Shown here: piece by piece, positions 1 through 55,927 of the stretch | How positions within the stretch are numbered: position 1 is the stretch's first letter | Layout: each line of letters opens with the position of its first letter | Sequence record: OZ035768.1 | Reading direction: 5' to 3' (one strand) | Length of the DNA: 55,927 nucleotides | From: Sashavirus 536P12 | Position numbers and translations under genes: made by a program | Notes under the pieces: generated by a model | What the model saw: the letters and a program-made list of their open reading frames with translations, nothing else | Databases searched by the model: none | Told to the model about the DNA's origin: nothing

Positions 1-29
1 CTAATTTAAAATTTATGGGAGACAAATTT

Positions 30-665
30 ATGAAAATTTCAGACCGGGCTAAAAGGGCTGCTCTGGAGTTGTCGCCGGAACAGCTTAAGTTCGCCAACCT
101 GTGGTTAGATCGTGTCAATAACGGCTTCAGCAATACGCGATGCGTTTTAGAGGCTTATCCGGGTCACACATCTGATGCAGCCGCTGCAACGACCGCACAC
201 CGCCTCCTGTCGAATACGAAGGTGTTGAACTATCTGGACGCGATGGGAAGTCATGCGCTTGAGTCTGTCGGGGAATCGTTAACGAGTCGTGTCGAGTGGT
301 GGAAACGAGCGGCAAGTACGGCTGAAGAATTACTGGAACCGTATTGTCAACGTGTCATCGTTCCTGGCGAAGACGACACAGAAGCGAAACACCTGTGGGT
401 GAACAGTACCGACGATATCCCCAGCCATCTGCAACAGTACGTAGTTTGCTACAAACGTTACATGCGGGGTGGATACATTCTGGTGACACGTGAACTGTTC
501 GACCCGAAAACTCGTGCAAAAGCGTCTGAACAACTGGATAAGATCACCGGGAACAGTATCGATCGTGTGGAATTGTCTGGCGTGGTTGGTAACGTGGTTC
601 AGAGTGTTCCTGAAGGTGCAACTATCGACGACATCGCGCAACTGTATCAGAAGGCGCTTAAATAA
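30..665 (+). CDS. terminase small subunit (TerS) candidate
   Basis: ORF 15..665; likely start ATG at 30 with GGGAGA SD 7 nt upstream; N-terminal HTH-like segment (AKRAALELSPEQLKFANLW) and GFSNTRCVLEAYPG...AHRLLSN pattern typical of phage TerS; lies upstream of TerL. Confidence 0.55.
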   Translation: MKISDRAKRAALELSPEQLKFANLWLDRVNNGFSNTRCVLEAYPGHTSDAAAATTAHRLLSNTKVLNYLDAMGSHALESVGESLTSRVEWWKRAASTAEELLEPYCQRVIVPGEDDTEAKHLWVNSTDDIPSHLQQYVVCYKRYMRGGYILVTRELFDPKTRAKASEQLDKITGNSIDRVELSGVVGNVVQSVPEGATIDDIAQLYQKALK

Positions 666-1276: not shown

Positions 1277-1717
1277 TTACGATAATTTAACAGTTAATCC
1301 GGCATTGGTCAGAACGTTAGCAACATCACGCACACCAGCTTCATATCCGTCTATAGGTGTTGCGGGTGATTTAATACAAATGCCAGCATGCTTTGGTAAT
1401 TCAATTACCAACTGTTCCCGACTGACTTTCCACCCTTCCCACATTGCGCTCATGGTGATAAACCAGACACTACCTAAACTGGCTTTCTTGTTCTCCCAAA
1501 ACCAGTCGATGAACTCTATCGACATTCCATGCTGTTTTGCAATTTCATAACGGTCATCCACTTTTTCAACCCTCCACCCATATTTAGCACGATTCATAGC
1601 AGTCCGTTCATCATTTGTGGTGAACAGTACGCGCCCGGATTTATGACAAATGTTCCACATTATTTTGAAAACCATCCTCCTCAAGCTCACCAAGATACGC
1701 ACATTGCCAATCTGCAT
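1277..1717 (-). CDS. hypothetical protein
   Basis: 146-aa ORF in reverse-strand cassette between TerS and TerL; no recognisable motif. Confidence 0.4.
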   Translation of the reverse strand: MQIGNVRILVSLRRMVFKIMWNICHKSGRVLFTTNDERTAMNRAKYGWRVEKVDDRYEIAKQHGMSIEFIDWFWENKKASLGSVWFITMSAMWEGWKVSREQLVIELPKHAGICIKSPATPIDGYEAGVRDVANVLTNAGLTVKLS

Positions 1718-2001
1718 CGCAAAGTACAGGACGGTCAGTTGTTACCAATAGATTTAAACATTCAAATACGGTCATACTTCTGTAATCAAACATAACCTAA
1801 TAACCCCTTTTAATCTTTTCCAGTGCGCGTTGCACGATCTGTCAGGATGACAACATGAATAATTGTGCGTATTGCCCCAGTGCTAAATTTCGTGGTTTAT
1901 CCTGATAAGCGTAAATCGTTGCAACGTCATCACCATTTAAACGGATCCGCCACGGTGTCAGAGTTGGTTTATCACCCATGTTCGATGCTCTCCAGTAATT
2001 T

Positions 2002-2586
2002 TTACTCAGTGAAAAGTTTCACCAACAGTTTGTTAATGTCAGCATCATAAGCATCATAAGCAGCACGAGCAGCATAAGCATCAGCAGCACGAGCAGCACG
2101 AGCAGCACGAGCAGCACGAGCAGCACGAGCAGCATCATAAGCAGCACGAGCAGCATAAGCAGCAGCATAAGCAGCAGCACGAGCAGCACGAGCAGCATAA
2201 GCAGCATAAGCAGCAGCATAAGCAGCACGAGCAGCACGAGCAGCATCAGCAGCATCAGCAGCATCATAAGCAGCACGAGCAGCATAAGCAGCATAAGCAG
2301 CATTCTGTGATGGATTGTTAAGAAAATCCTGAATCAGATTAAAGTCATTCGTATAAGGTCGAATCAATTCGATATTCAACAAAGCACAATCGCAAGCGAA
2401 CCGAACGATTTTTTCTTTCGATAAGATTTTCCCGGCTAACCATAACAAGTCTGAAACGGTGTTTTCACCACCGATTAGACTAATAACTTCAACAGGTTCG
2501 TCAGTGTTGTTAGTCTGAATGATGAAACGTTTAAAACCTTCCTGACATGCGCCAAAATTTTTCAGTTCTTGTTTAGTGATTTTCAT
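2002..2586 (-). CDS. protein with N-terminal globular domain and C-terminal Ala-Ala-(Arg/Tyr/Asp) tripeptide repeat array
   Basis: 194-aa ORF; residues ~95-185 are AAY/AAR/AAD repeats encoded by a near-perfect 9-bp tandem DNA array; GAGGG SD upstream of ATG at 2586; driven by promoter P2. Confidence 0.6.
   Translation of the reverse strand: MKITKQELKNFGACQEGFKRFIIQTNNTDEPVEVISLIGGENTVSDLLWLAGKILSKEKIVRFACDCALLNIELIRPYTNDFNLIQDFLNNPSQNAAYAAYAARAAYDAADAADAARAARAAYAAAYAAYAARAARAAAYAAAYAARAAYDAARAARAARAARAARAADAYAARAAYDAYDADINKLLVKLFTE
2035..2303. repeat. tandem 9-bp (3-codon) repeat array (agcacgagc / agcataagc / agcatcagc), ~30 units
   Basis: directly visible periodicity in sequence 2035-2303; lies inside the 2002..2586 CDS. 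Confidence 0.9.
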
Positions 2587-2809
2587 ACCTGTAACCCTCT
2601 TGTTTTTTGTTTAGTGACAAGATATCTCTTCAACCCGTCGCAACTAATTTCACAATCCCCGCAGGAACCACCATCCAACCAGATGATGCATAGTGTGTGA
2701 TTTCGTGGGGTGAGTTACGCTTTATACTCACCGTAGCGCCTGACAATCAGCGGTATCTTCAGCCGGACAATTCCGGGTTACTACATACTTGGTCAGGTAT
2801 CTTGTCTAT

Positions 2810-2858
2810 GGCAATAACTATACAGATACATGAGTAATCTGTCAAGAATTATTTTAAA
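2810..2858 (-). promoter_or_regulatory. conserved promoter element (P2)
   Basis: GTCAAGAATTATTTTAAA at 2841-2858; minus-strand -35 TTGACA, 17-nt spacer, -10 TATAGT; ~220-nt leader before the ATG at 2586. Confidence 0.7.
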
Positions 2859-2921
2859 TCTCTGTTACCACCAATCACCCGTGGTAAACTGTACAGAACA
2901 GTTACAAACGGACCGACAATC

Positions 2922-4685
2922 ATGATTAAGTTTACTGGAAATATTCATAATTACCCGCGCTGGCGGGATGCTTACGCAAACGACGAACGTATCTGGCGAA
3001 AAGGTCATCCACGCCCGGATTACAAACAGTGTTACATTGACCGCATTAACCTGTTAAATCGTATGCGCATGGATCGGGTCATTGTCCCGGTGCTGAAAAA
3101 GTATTACGAAACAAACCCGGTAGCATTCATTCTCGACTGGGCGTTTACTTATGACCCGCGTAACGTCGGTACTGAATACCCGCCAAACATGCCTTTCTGC
3201 CTTTTCGAACGTCAGATCGACATGGTTCAGTTTGTTTACGAAGCGCTTGAAGACAAAGAAAAAGGGCTTTGGGAAAAATCGCGAGACTATGGTGCGACCT
3301 GGGTAGCCTGTGGTTTGTCCGTGTGGGCGTGGCTGTATCGTCCCGGTTCTTCAGTTGGCTGGGGATCACGTAAAGAGCAACTTGTTGATAAACTGGGCGA
3401 CCCGGATAGTATTTTTGAAAAGATTCGCCAGATTATCCGTGCATTACCACCGGAATTACGCCCTGTTGGTCTGCGTGAAAAAGACCATCTGGTTTACATG
3501 AAATGTATCAACCCTGAAAACGGTGCAACAATTACTGGCGAAGCTGGTGACAACATCGGTCGTGGTGGTCGTAAATCTGTCTATTTCTTGGATGAAGCGG
3601 CACACGTAGATCGTCCTGAACTGATTGAAGCGTCGTTGTCAGCTAACACCAACGTTCGTATCGACATCAGTTCAGTTAATGGCGTTGGTAATGTTTTTTA
3701 TCGTAATCGTAAAGCTGGTCTGGAATGGGAACCGGGTAAGAAATTACCCCGTGGTAAATTGCGTGTCATGGTTCTGGACTGGCGCGATCACCCGGCTAAA
3801 GACGACGAATGGTATAAGCGAGAAAAACAATCGTTCGCTGAAAAAGGTTTACAGCATATTTTCGCACAGGAAGTCGATCGCGACTATGCCGCTGCTGTTC
3901 AGGGTGTACTGATTAAAGCTGAATGGGTGCGCGCTGCTTTTGACGCGTTCCGTGATACAGAATGGCGCAAAGCTAACGACTTACTTACACCAACAGGTCA
4001 ACGTATCGCCGGACAGGATGCCGCAGACGGTGGTGAAGATGCAAGTGCATTGGTAATTGCTCACGGTGTATTCCTGACACATCTACAGCTTGACCACAGG
4101 GGCGCTGAACTGGCTGCACCAGGGATGTTGACGATGGCTAATATGCTGGGTGTTGATGAATACTGGTACGAAGTTAACGGTGTTGGTACAGGCGTTAAAG
4201 TAGCGGCAAATGACCGGAAAGATATTTTACGCTTCCGTGTGCGTCCGTGGTTACCGAATGGAAAAGTTGTGGATCCGGGTGGTGATATTATCGGTGGTAC
4301 GAAACCTGGTGACAAAGACCGTAAATCAAACAAAGATTATTTCTCAAATTATAAAGCACAGGCATCATGGGCGCTGCGTCTGCGTTGTCAGCGAATTTAT
4401 AAATGGTATGTGGAAGGTCAACCACAGGATCCAGACGAAATCATTCTGATTGATCCATCACTGGAAAACGCACAACGGTTAGAAGCTGAGTTAAGTCAGC
4501 CAACGTATACCAGTAACGGTGCCGGGAAGATTGTGATCGACAAGAAACCAAACGGAAGTAAGTCACCAAACTTTTTCGATGCTGCGGTTATTGCACTATC
4601 ACCAAAACGCACTGAATTTGTCGAAGAACCATTTACTGGTGGTGTGAATCCTGTTGGTACTCCTGAATACGGTGACATTTTTTAA
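2922..4685 (+). CDS. terminase large subunit (TerL)
   Basis: 587 aa; Walker A-like EKSRDYGATW, Walker B-like VYFLDEAAH, C-terminal nuclease-like region; size and position typical of TerL. Confidence 0.75.
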   Translation: MIKFTGNIHNYPRWRDAYANDERIWRKGHPRPDYKQCYIDRINLLNRMRMDRVIVPVLKKYYETNPVAFILDWAFTYDPRNVGTEYPPNMPFCLFERQIDMVQFVYEALEDKEKGLWEKSRDYGATWVACGLSVWAWLYRPGSSVGWGSRKEQLVDKLGDPDSIFEKIRQIIRALPPELRPVGLREKDHLVYMKCINPENGATITGEAGDNIGRGGRKSVYFLDEAAHVDRPELIEASLSANTNVRIDISSVNGVGNVFYRNRKAGLEWEPGKKLPRGKLRVMVLDWRDHPAKDDEWYKREKQSFAEKGLQHIFAQEVDRDYAAAVQGVLIKAEWVRAAFDAFRDTEWRKANDLLTPTGQRIAGQDAADGGEDASALVIAHGVFLTHLQLDHRGAELAAPGMLTMANMLGVDEYWYEVNGVGTGVKVAANDRKDILRFRVRPWLPNGKVVDPGGDIIGGTKPGDKDRKSNKDYFSNYKAQASWALRLRCQRIYKWYVEGQPQDPDEIILIDPSLENAQRLEAELSQPTYTSNGAGKIVIDKKPNGSKSPNFFDAAVIALSPKRTEFVEEPFTGGVNPVGTPEYGDIF

Positions 4686-4848: not shown

Positions 4849-5526
4849 ATGTCTGACATGACTTTAGTTCCCACTGGCGGTTTCGGCGGTGAAGCTGGCG
4901 CGGCTGCACTTGGCGGTGGCATCGGTGGTCTTATCGGTTCCTGGTTCGGTAACGGTTGGGGTGGCGGTGGTAACTTTGGTGGTCCTGTAGAAGTTCAAGC
5001 CTCTGTAGATACCAACGCTATTCTGCAAGCCATCAATAACGGTGCTCTTCAGACCATTCAGGGTCAGAATGGTACAAACCTGACCGTTGAACGCGCTGCA
5101 GCTTCCACTTTTAACGGTATCACTCAACAGAACACACAAAACCTGCTGGCATCTGTACAAGGTTTTGCAGGTCTGAACACTCAGATTCAGCAGGGTACGA
5201 ACACTGTGACCAATGCGATCTGTGCATCTGAAACTGCGGCACTGACTCGTTCTTTCCAGGCACAGTTAGCGGCTGAGAAGTGTTGCTGCGAAACCAACCT
5301 GAATATCGAACGTCAGGCAGAAGCAACTCGTGCACTGATCCGTGATCAGTTCGCACAGTCTCAGGCTGTTCTGATTTGTGACCTGAAATCTCAGATTCAA
5401 ACCCGTGACTTCCAGTTGTCTCAATTGTCACAAACGTCTCAGTTGGCGTGCAAAATTAACCAGGTCGATCAGCTTATTAACTTCAAGCTGCCTACTCCGC
5501 AAACTCCACCGACTGGCTGCTGCTAA
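4849..5526 (+). CDS. Gly-rich / glycine-zipper N-terminus, Gln/Thr-rich, Cys-containing protein of unknown function
   Basis: 225 aa; N-terminal GGFGGEAGAAALGGGIGGLIGSWFGNGWGGGGNFGG, internal CCC, C-terminal GCC; strong SD AGGAG; first gene after TerL terminator. Confidence 0.6.
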   Translation: MSDMTLVPTGGFGGEAGAAALGGGIGGLIGSWFGNGWGGGGNFGGPVEVQASVDTNAILQAINNGALQTIQGQNGTNLTVERAAASTFNGITQQNTQNLLASVQGFAGLNTQIQQGTNTVTNAICASETAALTRSFQAQLAAEKCCCETNLNIERQAEATRALIRDQFAQSQAVLICDLKSQIQTRDFQLSQLSQTSQLACKINQVDQLINFKLPTPQTPPTGCC

Positions 5527-5576: not shown

Positions 5577-5936
5577 ATGCATTACAAACCGTATTACGTT
5601 ATCAAAAAAGACGATGATGACGATGAAGAGGAAGATGTAGAAATTCATCACCACCATCATTATCACCACGGACATCACCCGGACACGATGGGAGTATTTC
5701 ATCATGATAGCTCTGTTAGCGAACATGGTTCAGTTATGGCCCATGTTAAAGCACGTATGGATAACCCTCCTTCGACTTGGGCGTCGTACCACGATAAGCC
5801 CGGCGGGATGATGTCCATTGTTGAAATGGAATATCGCGAACTGATGGAAGAAAAAGCCGAAGGTTCGACGTCTGGTATTAAAAAAGAGCTAACAGATCTG
5901 GCTGCAGCCTGTATCAACGCGCTTAAAAAGATGTAA
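5577..5936 (+). CDS. histidine-rich acidic protein (putative metal-binding)
   Basis: 119 aa; DDDDDEEEDVEIHHHHHYHHGHHPD natural poly-His tract; good SD (AGGAGA). Confidence 0.6.
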   Translation: MHYKPYYVIKKDDDDDEEEDVEIHHHHHYHHGHHPDTMGVFHHDSSVSEHGSVMAHVKARMDNPPSTWASYHDKPGGMMSIVEMEYRELMEEKAEGSTSGIKKELTDLAAACINALKKM

Positions 5937-9189: not shown

Positions 9190-9235
9190 ACTAAAGCATA
9201 ATCGCATGTTTGCAATCTGTCAAGAATTATTTTAA
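9190..9235 (-). promoter_or_regulatory. conserved promoter element (P4)
   Basis: GTCAAGAATTATTTTAA at 9219-9235; minus-strand -35 TTGACA, 17-nt spacer, -10 TATGCT. Confidence 0.65.
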
Positions 9236-11411: not shown

Positions 11412-11459
11412 GTTTGTAGGTTACACGTCCTTGTGTAATCCATCAAGAATTATTTTAAA
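11412..11459 (-). promoter_or_regulatory. conserved promoter element (P5, -35 variant TTGATG)
   Basis: ATCAAGAATTATTTTAAA at 11442-11459. Confidence 0.6.
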
Positions 11460-12554: not shown

Positions 12555-12602
12555 ACAAATGTTAGTGTTACTGCTTGCAATGTGTCAAGAATTATTTTAA
12601 AC
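12555..12602 (-). promoter_or_regulatory. conserved promoter element (P6)
   Basis: GTCAAGAATTATTTTAAAC at 12584-12602; minus-strand -35 TTGACA. Confidence 0.6.
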
Positions 12603-16229: not shown

Positions 16230-16277
16230 GTGATAAAGATACCCCACCGCTTGTAATCCGTCAAGAATTATTTTAAA
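16230..16277 (-). promoter_or_regulatory. conserved promoter element (P7)
   Basis: GTCAAGAATTATTTTAAA at 16260-16277; minus-strand -35 TTGACG, -10 TATCTT. Confidence 0.65.
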
Positions 16278-16560: not shown

Positions 16561-16603
16561 ACGTAAAATAATTCTTGACGGATTACACCGACACAACTAC
16601 CCT
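16561..16603 (+). promoter_or_regulatory. conserved promoter element (P8, + orientation)
   Basis: AAAATAATTCTTGACGGATTACA with TTGACG at 16575-16580; divergent from P7 across region A. Confidence 0.6.
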
Positions 16604-16633
16604 GTGGTTAAGAAAACAAGAAGGGTTGAATGT

Positions 16634-17002
16634 ATGGATCCGAACATCAGAATTGCTACAGACGAATTCATTCGTCGCGCCCGTAAAATTCACGGTGATC
16701 GTTACGACTACTCATTCAGCATTGTTGAAGATAGTTCCAGCACCGTGGTTATTATTGACCGTGAAACTAACACAGTGTTTTTCCAGGTTGTCGCTGAACA
16801 TCTGGACGGTGTTGAACCGGTAACGACTGCTGTTGAACCGGTAACGACTGCTGTTGAACCGGTAACGACTGCTGTTGAACCGATCAAGAATCTTTCTGAG
16901 ATATTCGGTAACGTCGTAAACAGCGTGTATCACCAGTGCAATTATTCATCTGAAATGTTAGAATTTAGTCATGTTGAAACAATACGAGGACAATCCCCGT
17001 GA
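16634..17002 (+). CDS. hypothetical protein with tandem VEPVTTA heptad repeats
   Basis: ORF 16604 begins with GTG; likely start ATG 16634 after AAGGG; N-terminal EFIRRARKIHGDRYDYS resembles the repeats of the 25306..26217 protein. Confidence 0.5.
   Translation: MDPNIRIATDEFIRRARKIHGDRYDYSFSIVEDSSSTVVIIDRETNTVFFQVVAEHLDGVEPVTTAVEPVTTAVEPVTTAVEPIKNLSEIFGNVVNSVYHQCNYSSEMLEFSHVETIRGQSP
16811..16882. repeat. 21-bp tandem repeat x3.4 (gttgaaccggtaacgactgct)
   Basis: perfect direct repeats inside the CDS, in frame. Confidence 0.9.
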
Positions 17003-24479: not shown

Positions 24480-24526
24480 AGTTAAAGATACCTTAACAGG
24501 TGTAATTCGTCAAGAATTATTTTAAA
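24480..24526 (-). promoter_or_regulatory. conserved promoter element (P9)
   Basis: CGTCAAGAATTATTTTAAA at 24508-24526; minus-strand -35 TTGACG, -10 TATCTT. Confidence 0.65.
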
Positions 24527-26398: not shown

Positions 26399-26452
26399 TT
26401 TGTAACCCTCCGTTGTTTTGTTGATTGTAGTTTACACACCATTGTGCAATCC

Positions 26453-26470
26453 GTCAAGAATTATTTTAAA
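26453..26470 (-). promoter_or_regulatory. conserved promoter element (P10)
   Basis: GTCAAGAATTATTTTAAA at 26453-26470; minus-strand -35 TTGACG. Confidence 0.65.
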
Positions 26471-44192: not shown

Positions 44193-44240
44193 TCGCTAAC
44201 TTTAAAAGGTGTTGTGTAATCTGTCAAGAATTATTTTACA
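44193..44240 (-). promoter_or_regulatory. conserved promoter element (P11)
   Basis: GTCAAGAATTATTTTACA at 44223-44240; minus-strand -35 TTGACA, -10 TAAAGT. Confidence 0.6.
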
Positions 44241-44255: not shown

Positions 44256-44303
44256 TGCAGATGTTAGAGGAATGAGTTGCAATACGTCAAGAACTATTTT
44301 AAA
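44256..44303 (-). promoter_or_regulatory. conserved promoter element (P12, tandem with P11)
   Basis: GTCAAGAACTATTTTAAA at 44286-44303; minus-strand -35 TTGACG. Confidence 0.55.
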
Positions 44304-49681: not shown

Positions 49682-49723
49682 TAAAATAATTCTTGACGAA
49701 TTACAGAGGTGTGCGCTATAGTC
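49682..49723 (+). promoter_or_regulatory. conserved promoter element (P13, + orientation)
   Basis: TAAAATAATTCTTGACGAATTACA; -35 TTGACG 49693-49698, 18-nt spacer, -10 TATAGT 49717-49722. Confidence 0.7.
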
Positions 49724-51063: not shown

Positions 51064-51455
51064 TAATCGTCGTCACAGGTGGTCGTGACTTCAACGACAG
51101 AGTAGCAGTATTTTCCGCGTTAGGACTACTTCACAAACAATTCCCCATTACCGAACTAATTGAAGGTGGTGCGTCAGGTGTTGATAACCTGTGTAAGCAA
51201 TGGGCGCAGTTACACAGTATTCCTGTGCGTAGTTGCCCGGCAGCGTGGGACGATCTGACTGTACCTGGTGCGGTTGTAAAACAGGGCAAGCACGGGCCTT
51301 ATAACGCTGTTGCAGGTCATCAACGTAATCAGGCGATGTTAGAGGGTGAGCCACGCCCTACATATGGTGTTGTGTTCCCCGGTGGGCGTGGTACTGCTGA
51401 TATGCATCGTCGCATGTTGAAAGCTGGTTTAACTGTGTGGGTTCCATATCCTTAA
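51060..51455 (+). CDS. DUF2493 / SLOG-family protein (predicted nucleotide-binding)
   Basis: 131 aa; MIIVVTGGRDF...GGASGVDNL...GHQRNQAM...VVFPGGRGT pattern; stop overlaps promoter P14. Confidence 0.5.
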   Translation: MIIVVTGGRDFNDRVAVFSALGLLHKQFPITELIEGGASGVDNLCKQWAQLHSIPVRSCPAAWDDLTVPGAVVKQGKHGPYNAVAGHQRNQAMLEGEPRPTYGVVFPGGRGTADMHRRMLKAGLTVWVPYP

Positions 51456-51493
51456 AATAATTCTTGACAGATTACCAACCCTCCCCGATAATT
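51452..51493 (+). promoter_or_regulatory. conserved promoter element (P14, + orientation)
   Basis: TTAAAATAATTCTTGACAGATTACCA; -35 TTGACA 51464-51469, 17-nt spacer, -10 GATAAT 51487-51492. Confidence 0.7.
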
Positions 51494-54589: not shown

Positions 54590-55345
54590 TTATTGACCCA
54601 TCATATCTTTATACATCATCAAAACAACATCATCCGGCATATTGTCTACATCACAATGTGGGTTGTGTGATAACGCATACAGTCTGATTTTCTCCTTCAA
54701 ATCGCTGACATCGACTACAGGTGGTTCCACTCGTGTTACAGGTGGTTCCACTCGTGTTACAGGTGGTTCCACTCGTGTTACAGGTGGTTCACAAACCATC
54801 ACGTTAAACGGTGTACCGGTGCCTTCGTATTTTTCAAGCAAATCGACCATTACGTTTACACATTCCGGGATCCAGCCCCGGCGCAAACCATTCTGAATCC
54901 AACTGTCAGTAATTGTGTGTTCGTTTAAATTTCTGCGTAGCACATATCTTGCACATTCAAAATTACCGCACATCGCCTCAAACCGTGTCCACACGTCGTG
55001 ACCGTGAACAGCTTCCAGGATCTGTGAATCAACGTATCTGACACGTTGCCAGTATTTATTAGCAAAACGCCTGTGTGGTAATTTCTGACGCAGTTCGGTA
55101 ACCGGTATTGTGTGTTTAAGAACAATATTTTCGTCAGAATGTTGTACTGGCAAGGGTGACAGTGTGAAGTCAGTAATCTCTTCAAGAATAATACTGATCG
55201 TTTCATATTTAGGATGAAACCTACCGCTTAACCATTGGTTGTAACGACCAACAGTTACCTTAACACCCCGACGATTAAGGTATTCAACAGCGTTTTGTAC
55301 CCCGCCTTTTAAATCTATCAATTCGTCTAAAAGGTTCTTTTTCAT
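54590..55345 (-). CDS. HTH-like protein with C-terminal VEPPVTR tandem repeats (candidate regulator of adjacent operator-like repeats)
   Basis: ORF 54590..55381; likely start ATG 55345 with AAGGGTG SD; N-terminal LIDLKGGVQNAVEYLNRRGVKVTVGRYNQW resembles an HTH. Confidence 0.45.
   Translation of the reverse strand: MKKNLLDELIDLKGGVQNAVEYLNRRGVKVTVGRYNQWLSGRFHPKYETISIILEEITDFTLSPLPVQHSDENIVLKHTIPVTELRQKLPHRRFANKYWQRVRYVDSQILEAVHGHDVWTRFEAMCGNFECARYVLRRNLNEHTITDSWIQNGLRRGWIPECVNVMVDLLEKYEGTGTPFNVMVCEPPVTRVEPPVTRVEPPVTRVEPPVVDVSDLKEKIRLYALSHNPHCDVDNMPDDVVLMMYKDMMGQ
54718..54790. repeat. 21-bp tandem repeat x3.5 (caggtggttccactcgtgtta)
   Basis: perfect direct repeats inside the CDS, in frame. 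Confidence 0.9.
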
Positions 55346-55380
55346 TATCACACCCTTCTTGTTTGACCACGGGTAAATCA

Positions 55381-55927
55381 TAACGCGCGTTAGCAGCTAG
55401 TGCAAGACGTGCTTTATATGTTAGTGTGTTTACACCTAATGCATGTTGTGCATTAGCAGTTAGTGCAAGATGCACGTTGTGTATTAGCTGTTAGTGCACG
55501 TTGTGTATCTATGTTGGTACAGCTAATGCACGTTGTGAATTATATAATGCATGTTGTGCATTAAAGTTATACTTAACATAGATTTCGTCATGTTTACTTT
55601 TTAACCAACCCCTCTCTATCTTATTCTTTTTATTATCTTTTTATAGATAACATAGAAAACATAGATATAAAGAAGAAGTAGTATAGAAAGATAGAGATAG
55701 TGCATATAGTGTATTAGCTGTAAATAGAGCTAAAATAAAAGTCTGGGAGATACCTATTGTAATCTATGTTTTTATGCAAGTCTTTGAATTGATTGTGATT
55801 ATGGGCTACGTATTTATGTATGTAATCGAAAATTAGTGCATGTTGTGCACTAACTGTAAAATTAATACTAACGTTGTATTAGCTGTAAAACAGGGCGTGT
55901 GGACAACCCGTGGGTATCTGTGGGAAA
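55381..55927. repeat. iteron / operator-rich AT-rich region B (candidate origin, pac-proximal or regulatory region)
   Basis: multiple copies of TGCACGTTGTG / TATTAGCTG motifs; palindrome TTAGTGCA-N5-TGCACTAA (~55840-55860); 69-bp block 55578-55646 ~97% identical to 16382-16450; AT-rich core. Confidence 0.7.

Follow-up and report, generated by a model that had tools for sequence, protein, structure and literature searches.

In a 55,927-nt stretch of DNA from Sashavirus 536P12 (sequence record OZ035768.1; the whole of this stretch is referred to below as the window), the complete open reading frame (ORF) 2002..2586 on the minus strand encodes a protein with a long Ala-rich array. As judged from its sequence and its relatives, this product is probably an Imm5/DUF6931-like helical scaffold that carries an unstable coding triplet repeat; the gene, its family and an in-frame hypervariability driven by slippage are very probable. 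The best overall explanation that we can offer is that the in-frame hypervariable array acts as a fast-evolving binder, and we put the probability of this explanation at roughly 50%. The ORF had been singled out in an initial annotation, which described a ~95-aa N-terminal domain followed by Ala-Ala-X (AAX) triplets making up the C-terminal half of the protein. The domain and the array both proved to be real, but a conserved tail of 11 residues behind the array had been overlooked. From its N- to its C-terminus, the protein is composed of four elements, given here with the confidence of the AlphaFold2 model as the predicted local distance difference test (pLDDT) where it applies:

2428..2586, minus strand: N-terminal subdomain (aa 1-53, MKITKQEL...DLLWLAGK), pLDDT 94-98
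2302..2427, minus strand: core helices (aa 54-95, KEKIVRFACDCALLNIELIRPYTNDFNLIQDFLNNP...), the start of the array-bearing module, common to DUF7666-containing proteins
2038..2301, minus strand: hypervariable Ala-rich array (aa 96-183), a (GCT GCT NNT)-type coding minisatellite
2005..2037, minus strand: conserved C-terminal helix INKLLVKLFTE (aa 184-194), non-repeat, pLDDT 93-95

The array changes length in whole codons

Among the phages 9NA, Sergei and Solent, the DNA for the N-terminal domain was 100% identical over 276 nt, and the arrays measured 297, 138 and 240 nt, respectively. Arrays can thus differ by up to 159 nt with zero substitutions in the 276 flanking nt. Whole blocks, such as AAARAADADAAAYAAYAAY, are duplicated or deleted between these three arrays. 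When the window was compared with four relatives that share 95-97% identity in the N-terminal domain, the length of the array differed by 69-78 nt. Where the N-terminal domain was at least 93% identical to that of the window, the arrays spanned 21-91 aa, the window array being the longest there, and across the whole family they spanned 10-117 aa. The array therefore changes much faster than point substitutions accumulate in its flanks, and the initial suggestion that the copy number of the repeat would vary was borne out.

The reading frame was preserved throughout these changes. For eight alleles that were compared, all seven pairwise differences in array length were multiples of 3, and no frame-shifted homolog was encountered among ~250 sequences. 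Both the core and the tail motifs were matched in 109 of ~140 homologs, and the C-terminal helix, with its (I/V)NxLLxxLF motif conserved across the family, was kept in frame in nearly all examples examined. Since this conserved helix follows the array, the array has to remain in frame. These findings bear on the idea, put forward in the initial annotation, that slips by other than 3 nt would switch the C-terminal chemistry, making the protein phase-variable, with an Ala-rich form that mimics DNA, resembles ice-binding proteins or serves as a surface decoy. The +1 frame of the coding strand (Leu/Met) is indeed open through the array as a 94-aa ORF at 2019..2303. The +2 frame, however, contains 8 stops, and the Gln/His- and Ser-rich open frames lie on the opposite strand. 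A switch of frame would, moreover, remove the conserved tail. On the strength of the multiples-of-3 differences and the retained C-terminal helix we rejected a frameshift-type, phase-variable contingency locus.

The three functions proposed for the Ala-rich form fared no better. The net charge of the window array is +4 and that of the whole protein +3 (24 Lys and Arg versus 21 Asp and Glu). Some orthologous arrays are acidic, as a DNA mimic would require, but their net charge extends from -10 in 9NA to +4 and shows no consistent negative sign, and a DNA-mimicking anti-restriction protein of the Ocr or ArdA type was rejected as a candidate. Ice binding would find some support in homologs of Shewanella phages that come from sea ice. 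Most homologs, however, belong to enteric or temperate-water phages, and neither a signal peptide or other export signal nor an 11-residue Thr periodicity was found, which also speaks against a surface decoy. With Ala above 60% and long helices that are predicted to fold back, the array resembles Type I and 'Maxi' antifreeze helices and alacoil-type hairpins, from which it differs in its period of 3 rather than 11, its lack of a Thr ladder, the enteric hosts of the phages and the absence of a structural match. A Type I antifreeze or ice-binding helix was accordingly rejected, the window array having a lag-3 periodicity and no Thr at all. Altogether, a frame-switching protein with any of these activities is very improbable.

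The DNA of the array has the properties expected of an unstable repeat. As single-stranded DNA, the coding strand of the array folded at -51.9 kcal/mol, compared with -36.1 ± 2.8 kcal/mol for shuffled sequences (z = -5.6), and the predicted fold was made up of CTG-type hairpins, in which the GC pairs stay in register and T is mismatched with T. The array RNA also folded more stably than shuffled sequences (z = -2.9). It is well established that (CNG)n repeats form slipped hairpin structures and are unstable in Escherichia coli, and GCN runs encoding Ala belong to that class. With its uniform units, its hairpin potential and its length polymorphism, the array falls among the (CNG)n-type unstable coding triplet repeats or minisatellites. 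It shares with (CNG)n tracts and contingency loci the uniform triplets, the potential for slipped hairpins and the large length polymorphism between identical flanks. It differs from them in that the window tract is interrupted every 2-3 codons, and in that the outcome is diversity of in-frame length and sequence rather than ON/OFF switching. Together, the uniform (CNG)n-type codons and the known slipped structures make replication slippage or unequal recombination the likely mechanism by which the array changes its length.

Two technical or mechanistic alternatives were weighed at this point, namely that the array is an artefact of assembly, or that it is the product of hypermutation by a diversity-generating retroelement (DGR). 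Short-read assemblers can collapse or expand repeats of this kind, and individual lengths taken from metagenomes may be wrong. Homologous arrays are nevertheless present in independently sequenced phages, including 9NA, whose genome was determined by Sanger sequencing at 9-fold coverage with reads of ~660 nt, and frame and tail are always intact; the arrays in independent isolates show that the array is not an assembly artefact. As to DGRs, the exclusive use of NNT codons superficially recalls the AAY-to-NNY pattern of DGR variable regions, and the targets of these elements, such as Mtd of the Bordetella phage, are likewise phage proteins with a localised hypervariable region built from one codon class (NNY there, NNT here). 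DGRs, however, alter bases at a fixed length and need a template repeat and a reverse transcriptase, whereas the length varies here; the scaffold of their targets is a C-type lectin fold, that of the window protein a predicted helical hairpin. A DGR target was rejected because the alleles differ in length and the window holds no second, template copy of the repeat (reverse-transcriptase genes were not exhaustively searched for). We give almost no credence to either possibility.

Such arrays are treated unevenly in sequence records. In Vibrio phage 2.044.O (MG592661, L004), GenBank labels parts of the Ala-codon array at 4324-4397 as 'CRISPR spacers', a false positive of repeat finding within a coding gene, and the record of Sergei labels the array merely as a 'direct tandem repeat region'. 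In practical terms, the array misleads annotation pipelines and may be mis-assembled from short reads.

Composition of the array and selection on the encoded protein

The array of the window comprises 88 residues, 64% of which are Ala. It contains 25 AA-X units, 19 of them exact triplets, and can be read as AAR (12 times), AAY (4), AAD (3), AAYD (3) and AAAY (3) plus three short units. The autocorrelation of its residues peaks at lag 3 (0.60), and family-wide the periodicity is 3, 4 or 7. At the DNA level, Tandem Repeats Finder reported an array at 2039-2303 with a period of 9, 29.1 copies, 79% matches and 6% indels, which also scored with periods of 18, 39 and 12. The 'near-perfect' 9-bp array of ~30 AAX triplets in the initial annotation was therefore right as to the array and wrong as to its perfection. 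Since the repeat is imperfect and fits several periods, the codon is the true unit of the array. Only four codons are used, GCT for Ala (55-56), TAT for Tyr (12), CGT for Arg (12) and GAT for Asp (7), and the third position is T in 87 of 87 codons; the 94 N-terminal codons have mixed third bases.

The uniform third position, which recurs in the homologs of Vibrio phages, could indicate that the array acts primarily as DNA or RNA, with its coding function being secondary. It might then supply origin iterons or a series of primase sites (CTG/GCT), act as a hot spot of recombination or attenuate translation. The iterons of the lambda origin sit within the O gene. The stable folds of array DNA and RNA described above would fit such an element, as would the position of the gene, which immediately follows a primase or helicase gene in five phage lineages other than that of the window. 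Several observations contradict it. No DNA word is conserved across clades, the lineages using GCT, GCA or GCG sets; frame and C-terminal helix are always kept and codons for Pro and Gly are depleted; homologs without an array fill the same genomic slot; and in the window the gene adjoins a terminase gene and not replication genes. A function at the nucleic acid level is hence highly improbable.

To describe the protein-level pattern, residue composition was computed over 109 arrays of the family. These contained 47% Ala, 10% Asp, 7.8% Tyr, 6.0% Arg, 5.8% Thr, 5.7% Val, 3.3% Ser, 1.9% Gly and 0.4% Pro. Pro and Gly are one mutational step from GCT, like Asp, Thr, Val and Ser, and yet they were 3- to 25-fold rarer. 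This depletion fits a requirement for a helix and thus selection on the protein. Tyr and Arg, which are two steps from GCT, were among the commonest residues of the arrays. Furthermore, two types of array exist in the wider family, NNT arrays that combine Ala with Tyr, Asp and Arg, and NNR arrays that combine Ala or Ser with Trp, Glu and Arg. Both present the same aromatic, acidic and basic set with different codons, which argues for selection on side-chain chemistry and against a conserved DNA word. These patterns in the sequences show that selection evidently holds the array in frame and helical, and that it enriches aromatic, acidic and basic residues at the non-Ala positions.

A widespread family with a possible distant link to Imm5 and DUF6931

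The window protein matched phrog_21347 over its full length (E = 5.1e-75; residues 1-194 versus profile positions 1-186 of 186) and is thus a member of this group, with a weaker second match to phrog_18326 (E = 5e-14). Both groups are listed as 'unknown function'. No Pfam family was matched even at E <= 1, nor was there any NCBIfam or PADLOC match, and the statement that the architecture belongs to no characterised family was correct. A search of 5.8 billion proteins returned 128 homologs at 90% clustering, nearly all of them unnamed, and 1.84 billion cluster representatives, searched with a profile, yielded 821 at E <= 1e-3, of which 71 reached E <= 1e-30. The hosts of the phages concerned are Salmonella, E. 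coli, Vibrio and Shewanella. An exact-sequence look-up of the 194-aa protein gave no record. Literature on DUF6931, DUF7666, Imm5_like and Ala-rich hypervariable phage repeats contained nothing relevant; the size of the family, the speed of array change and the shared chemistry of the two codon types did not turn up in the searchable literature either.

The family alignment resolved the N-subdomain (aa 1-53), the core (aa 54-95; ..IVRFACDCALLNIELIKPYT..LI..FLNNP), the array and the C-terminal helix, the array being unalignable because it is Ala-rich and of variable length. The N-subdomain is an independent module that is also joined to DUF6931, to Imm5_like or to unrelated C-terminal halves (P0330). 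The core-plus-array module, in turn, occurs behind DUF7666, alone at the N-terminus (P0332) or before DUF6900 (P0370). In members without an array (Vibrio phage K120, L017, P0112), ordinary helical sequence with mixed, normal codon usage stands at the position of the array. In P0118 (72 aa; 9 contigs of up to 54.9 kb) and P0119, the first 41 residues equal those of the window protein and the remainder is unrelated (..NFRDCLKQAKKAGWVFKENN..), a pattern suggesting that, in some related phages, recombination has broken the N-subdomain or an insertion has interrupted it.

A sister group with at least 2,046 matches has a DUF7666 N-terminus in place of MKITKQEL...DLLWLAG and is likewise uncharacterised. 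These proteins (phrog_18326, 3416 and 8332) resemble the window protein in their core (xFAxxQALINIEKIKPY or, more generally, xFAxxxALINIEKIKPY), their periodic Ala-rich array, their short conserved C-terminal helix and their hypervariability. They differ in that their arrays consist mostly of S-A-A-[W/R/E] tetrapeptides in NNR codons (GCA or GCG, TCA or TCG, TGG, GAG, AGG or CGG), one array having G in 51 of 53 third positions. Two of the DUF7666-core proteins, P0360 and P0361, carry AA[Y/R/H/D] arrays as in the window.

A distant link to the DUF6931/Imm5-like superfamily, which the initial annotation had also overlooked, emerged from relatives of the window protein. P0121 (46.3 bits), P0113 (37.6 bits) and P0120 (37.3 bits) passed the gathering score of 27 bits for DUF6931 (PF22011) over the region equivalent to core plus array, and 9 of 94 aligned family members matched this domain at E < 0.01. 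The gathering score of Imm5_like (PF21805) was passed by P0122 (49.5 bits, aa 54-154) and P0371 (32.1 bits). The N-subdomain of P0122 is very similar to that of the window protein, and P0122 scored 25.3 bits against Imm5 (PF14423). When the C-terminal halves were aligned with the DUF6931 and Imm5-like variants by hhalign, a probability of 98.1% (E = 8e-14) was obtained over 45 columns, the first of which adjoins the shared N-subdomain; so short an alignment in this place is also compatible with module swapping. These results suggest that the core-plus-array module is distantly related to the putative toxin-immunity proteins that make up the helical DUF6931/Imm5-like superfamily. Imm5 is predicted to be the helical scaffold that confers immunity to DYW-clade deaminase toxins and CdiA-CT toxins, and Imm5 and Imm5_like have been proposed to be versatile scaffolds that bind structurally different toxins. 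Like the window protein as modelled, Imm5 and Imm5_like are small and nearly all-helical, with an Ala-rich helical C-terminal part. In contrast to them, the window gene resides in a virulent phage with no adjacent toxin gene, and its Ala-rich part stems from the recent expansion of a tandem array where theirs is fixed sequence. Neither a polymorphic toxin (DYW-clade deaminase or CdiA-CT) nor a poly-immunity locus was present beside the gene, whose neighbours in the window are small phage genes and terminase. DUF6931 itself is uncharacterised and therefore gives no functional information.

Predicted structure

The window protein was modelled with AlphaFold2 using an alignment of 94 sequences, which gave a mean pLDDT of 87 and a predicted template modelling score of 0.68. 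The head (aa 1-95) was helical, with a pLDDT of 91-98, and the ~95-aa N-terminal domain of the initial annotation was thereby confirmed. For the array, the model contained helices at 96-143 and 151-193 with a low-confidence turn in between, so that the array is predicted to form an antiparallel helical hairpin of variable length that projects from the head. A natural homolog of 113 aa with almost no array yielded the same head in AlphaFold2. A Foldseek search of the full model against the PDB gave no match, and searches of PDB sequences with the family profiles returned spurious matches only, to the YopM leucine-rich repeats and to designed repeats.

Possible function of the hypervariable array

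Within the explanation that we favour, the array of GCT runs would expand and contract in whole codons via slippage or unequal recombination, and selection would retain those in-frame helical arrays that are rich in aromatic, acidic and basic residues. The array would then form a rapidly diversifying protein-binding surface on the helical hairpin of an Imm5/DUF6931-related scaffold. With this surface, the phage protein could, early in infection, bind or neutralise a partner that is itself evolving fast, for instance a rival toxin or an effector of host defence. The classic hot-spot residues of protein interfaces are Tyr, Trp and Arg. For synthetic antibody paratopes, Fellouse and co-workers reportedly found in 2004 that a code of Tyr, Ala, Asp and Ser suffices. 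Taken by itself, the assignment of the protein as a binder or inhibitor is tentative, and we hold it to be somewhat doubtful. A bolder and clearly less likely conjecture is that the arrays constitute a diversity generator that works free of any retroelement, with a slippage-prone (GCN)n scaffold continually reshuffling a minimal binding code on a helical hairpin. This code would combine Ala with an aromatic, an acidic and a basic residue, namely Tyr, Asp and Arg in NNT arrays and Trp, Glu and Arg in NNR arrays. It would amount to an antibody-like inhibitor that is carried by thousands of phages, with varied N-terminal domains, against host defence effectors or rival toxins.

The main rival to a binder is a tolerated, 'selfish' expansion, that is, a slippage-prone (GCN)n tract in the hairpin of an ordinary helical protein whose head does all the work; the array would be near-neutral in length and sequence, its sole constraints being frame, helicity and solubility. 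This fits the more than 10-fold variation in array length (10-117 aa) and the near-absence of the array in P0032, P0043 and P0012 despite a conserved head, as well as the unconserved net charge and the strong tendency of the array DNA to form hairpins. Uniform third codon positions are likewise what concerted evolution by slippage would produce, and the charged residues may be there only to hold a poly-Ala helix in solution. Solubility requires neither Tyr nor Trp, however, and in either codon type these residues, though two to three steps from Ala codons, rank with the most frequent ones other than Ala. Tolerated junk is also hard to square with a module that is found in at least 2,000 DUF7666-type proteins plus 821 family representatives, and with arrays that have been rebuilt independently with different codons. 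We regard such an expansion as possible, if on the unlikely side.

Several points count against a fast-evolving binder on an Imm5-like scaffold. Natural alleles with almost no array exist, with 10 aa in P0032 and 21 aa in P0012, and the length of the array, perhaps even the array itself, may therefore be dispensable. The window protein itself scored below the gathering thresholds of DUF6931, Imm5_like and Imm5; as it has no Pfam match of its own, the link to these domains rests on the relatives and on the 45-column profile alignment. No toxin gene or domain adjoined the gene in any context examined, be it in the window or in relatives. The five AlphaFold2 models varied in mean pLDDT from 69 to 87. 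Lastly, in an array with a pure AAX period of 3, the side chains are distributed all round the helix, and no all-Ala face is left for packing of the hairpin.

Should the array indeed be a variable binding surface, it would represent a simple, slippage-based route to protein diversity that is distinct from DGRs, and the family could be a new class of proteins that act against defence systems or toxins and are kin to the Imm5-like immunity scaffolds. Fast-evolving accessory genes of phages often serve as weapons in the arms race with the host, and it was by such signals that most of the known anti-defence proteins came to light. Widespread as the family and its DUF7666 sister architecture are, both are wholly uncharacterised.

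Promoter, leader and genomic setting of the gene

The ORF starts with ATG and is preceded by the Shine-Dalgarno-like sequence GAGGG at 2595-2599, 8 nt 5′ of the start. In agreement with the initial annotation, which had assigned it a conserved promoter of its own and a leader of ~220 nt, we found the following elements upstream:

2840..2856, minus strand: promoter-associated motif TAAAATAATTCTTGACA, the last six bases of which (2845..2840) are the -35 hexamer TTGACA
2817..2822, minus strand: -10 hexamer TATAGT, 17 nt downstream of the -35 hexamer
2587..2816, minus strand: 5′ leader of ~225 nt, with no start codon in the frame of the gene and an in-frame TAA at 2611-2613

The resulting sigma-70-like promoter, TTGACA-17-TATAGT at 2845..2817 on the minus strand, has 11 of 12 consensus matches and is the sole such site within 1700-3100. 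The 17-mer TAAAATAATTCTTGACA, in which the -35 hexamer is embedded, occurs 13 times in the window when up to 3 mismatches are allowed, as compared with 0.28 expected. Four of the copies are exact and on the minus strand, each followed by a -10-like hexamer, and the motif is invariant in 9NA, Sergei, Solent, PDP46 and the metagenomic relative L010. The copies, with the consensus TAAAATAATTCTTGAC[A/G] (an A/T-rich upstream element plus the -35 hexamer) and 10 of 13 on the minus strand, are located at:

1029-1045, 2840-2856, 9218-9234, 11441-11457, 12583-12599, 16259-16275, 16564-16580, 24508-24524, 26452-26468, 44222-44238, 44285-44301, 49682-49698 and 51453-51469

This 17-mer looks like a phage-specific promoter class that would head operons of small genes across the genome. 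The leader RNA showed no unusual structure (z = -0.22), and an Rfam scan of the whole window gave no match. The ~225-nt leader is kept in 9NA, Sergei and Solent. In PDP46 and L010, it is replaced by unrelated sequence that lengthens the ORF by 47 codons (MNIVNSLMKDLLISGGWSESCVQ...), and this extension could reflect either the fusion of a small upstream gene or a gene call that reaches too far:

L002 (PDP46) 4857-4997 and L010 2048-2194: leader-replacing sequence, equivalent to window positions 2587-2816

On these features, ORF 2002..2586 is a real accessory phage gene with a promoter of its own, its expression as such being predicted. The window belongs to a virulent siphophage of the 9NA/Sashavirus type, and its top DNA matches were Sashavirus BDX09P1 (93%), AVIO78A (95%), PJ16, PDP46, Sasha and 9NA. 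The gene heads a leftward cluster or operon of small genes, which is flanked by the genes for the small terminase (15..665) and the large terminase (2922..4685), both in the opposite orientation. It was found in the phage of the window, PDP46, 9NA, Sergei and Solent and is absent from Sasha and AVIO78A; the DNA of its N-terminal domain had no match in 5,426 complete E. coli genomes. The accessory cluster between the terminase genes varies among relatives, from ~0.6 kb in Sasha over ~1.8 kb in the window to ~4.2 kb in PDP46 and AVIO78A, where it includes a gene for an RdgC-like exonuclease. The homologs that adjoin a primase or helicase gene were:

Vibrio phages 2.044.O and 489E54-1
P0122, next to D5_N/DUF5906
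P0113, next to Prim-Pol and an exonuclease
P0114, next to DnaB

The neighbours in other lineages include an amino-acid:DNA transferase (ADDT), a peptidase and genes of no known function, and no obligate partner gene was conserved among the neighbourhoods of the homologs. The gene associates with accessory genes of the early or replication phase.

Other repeats and low-complexity regions in the window

Two other coding tandem repeats, each with a 21-nt unit and 100% perfect, were detected at 16810-16882 (ORF 16604..17002, plus strand) and 54716-54790 (ORF 54590..55381, minus strand). They encode the heptapeptides VEPVTTA (3.5 copies) and EPPVTRV (3.6 copies) in two different proteins and look like similar Pro/Val/Thr linkers. 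The 119-aa product of ORF 5577-5936 on the plus strand carries a His-rich stretch after a run of acidic residues (..KKDDDDDEEEDVEIHHHHHYHHGHHPD..) and is predicted to be a possible metal binder. At the right end of the window, imperfect direct repeats that contain ATGCACGTTGTG-like words and have periods of 21-31 nt are clustered at positions 55439-55563; they may be iterons or operators.

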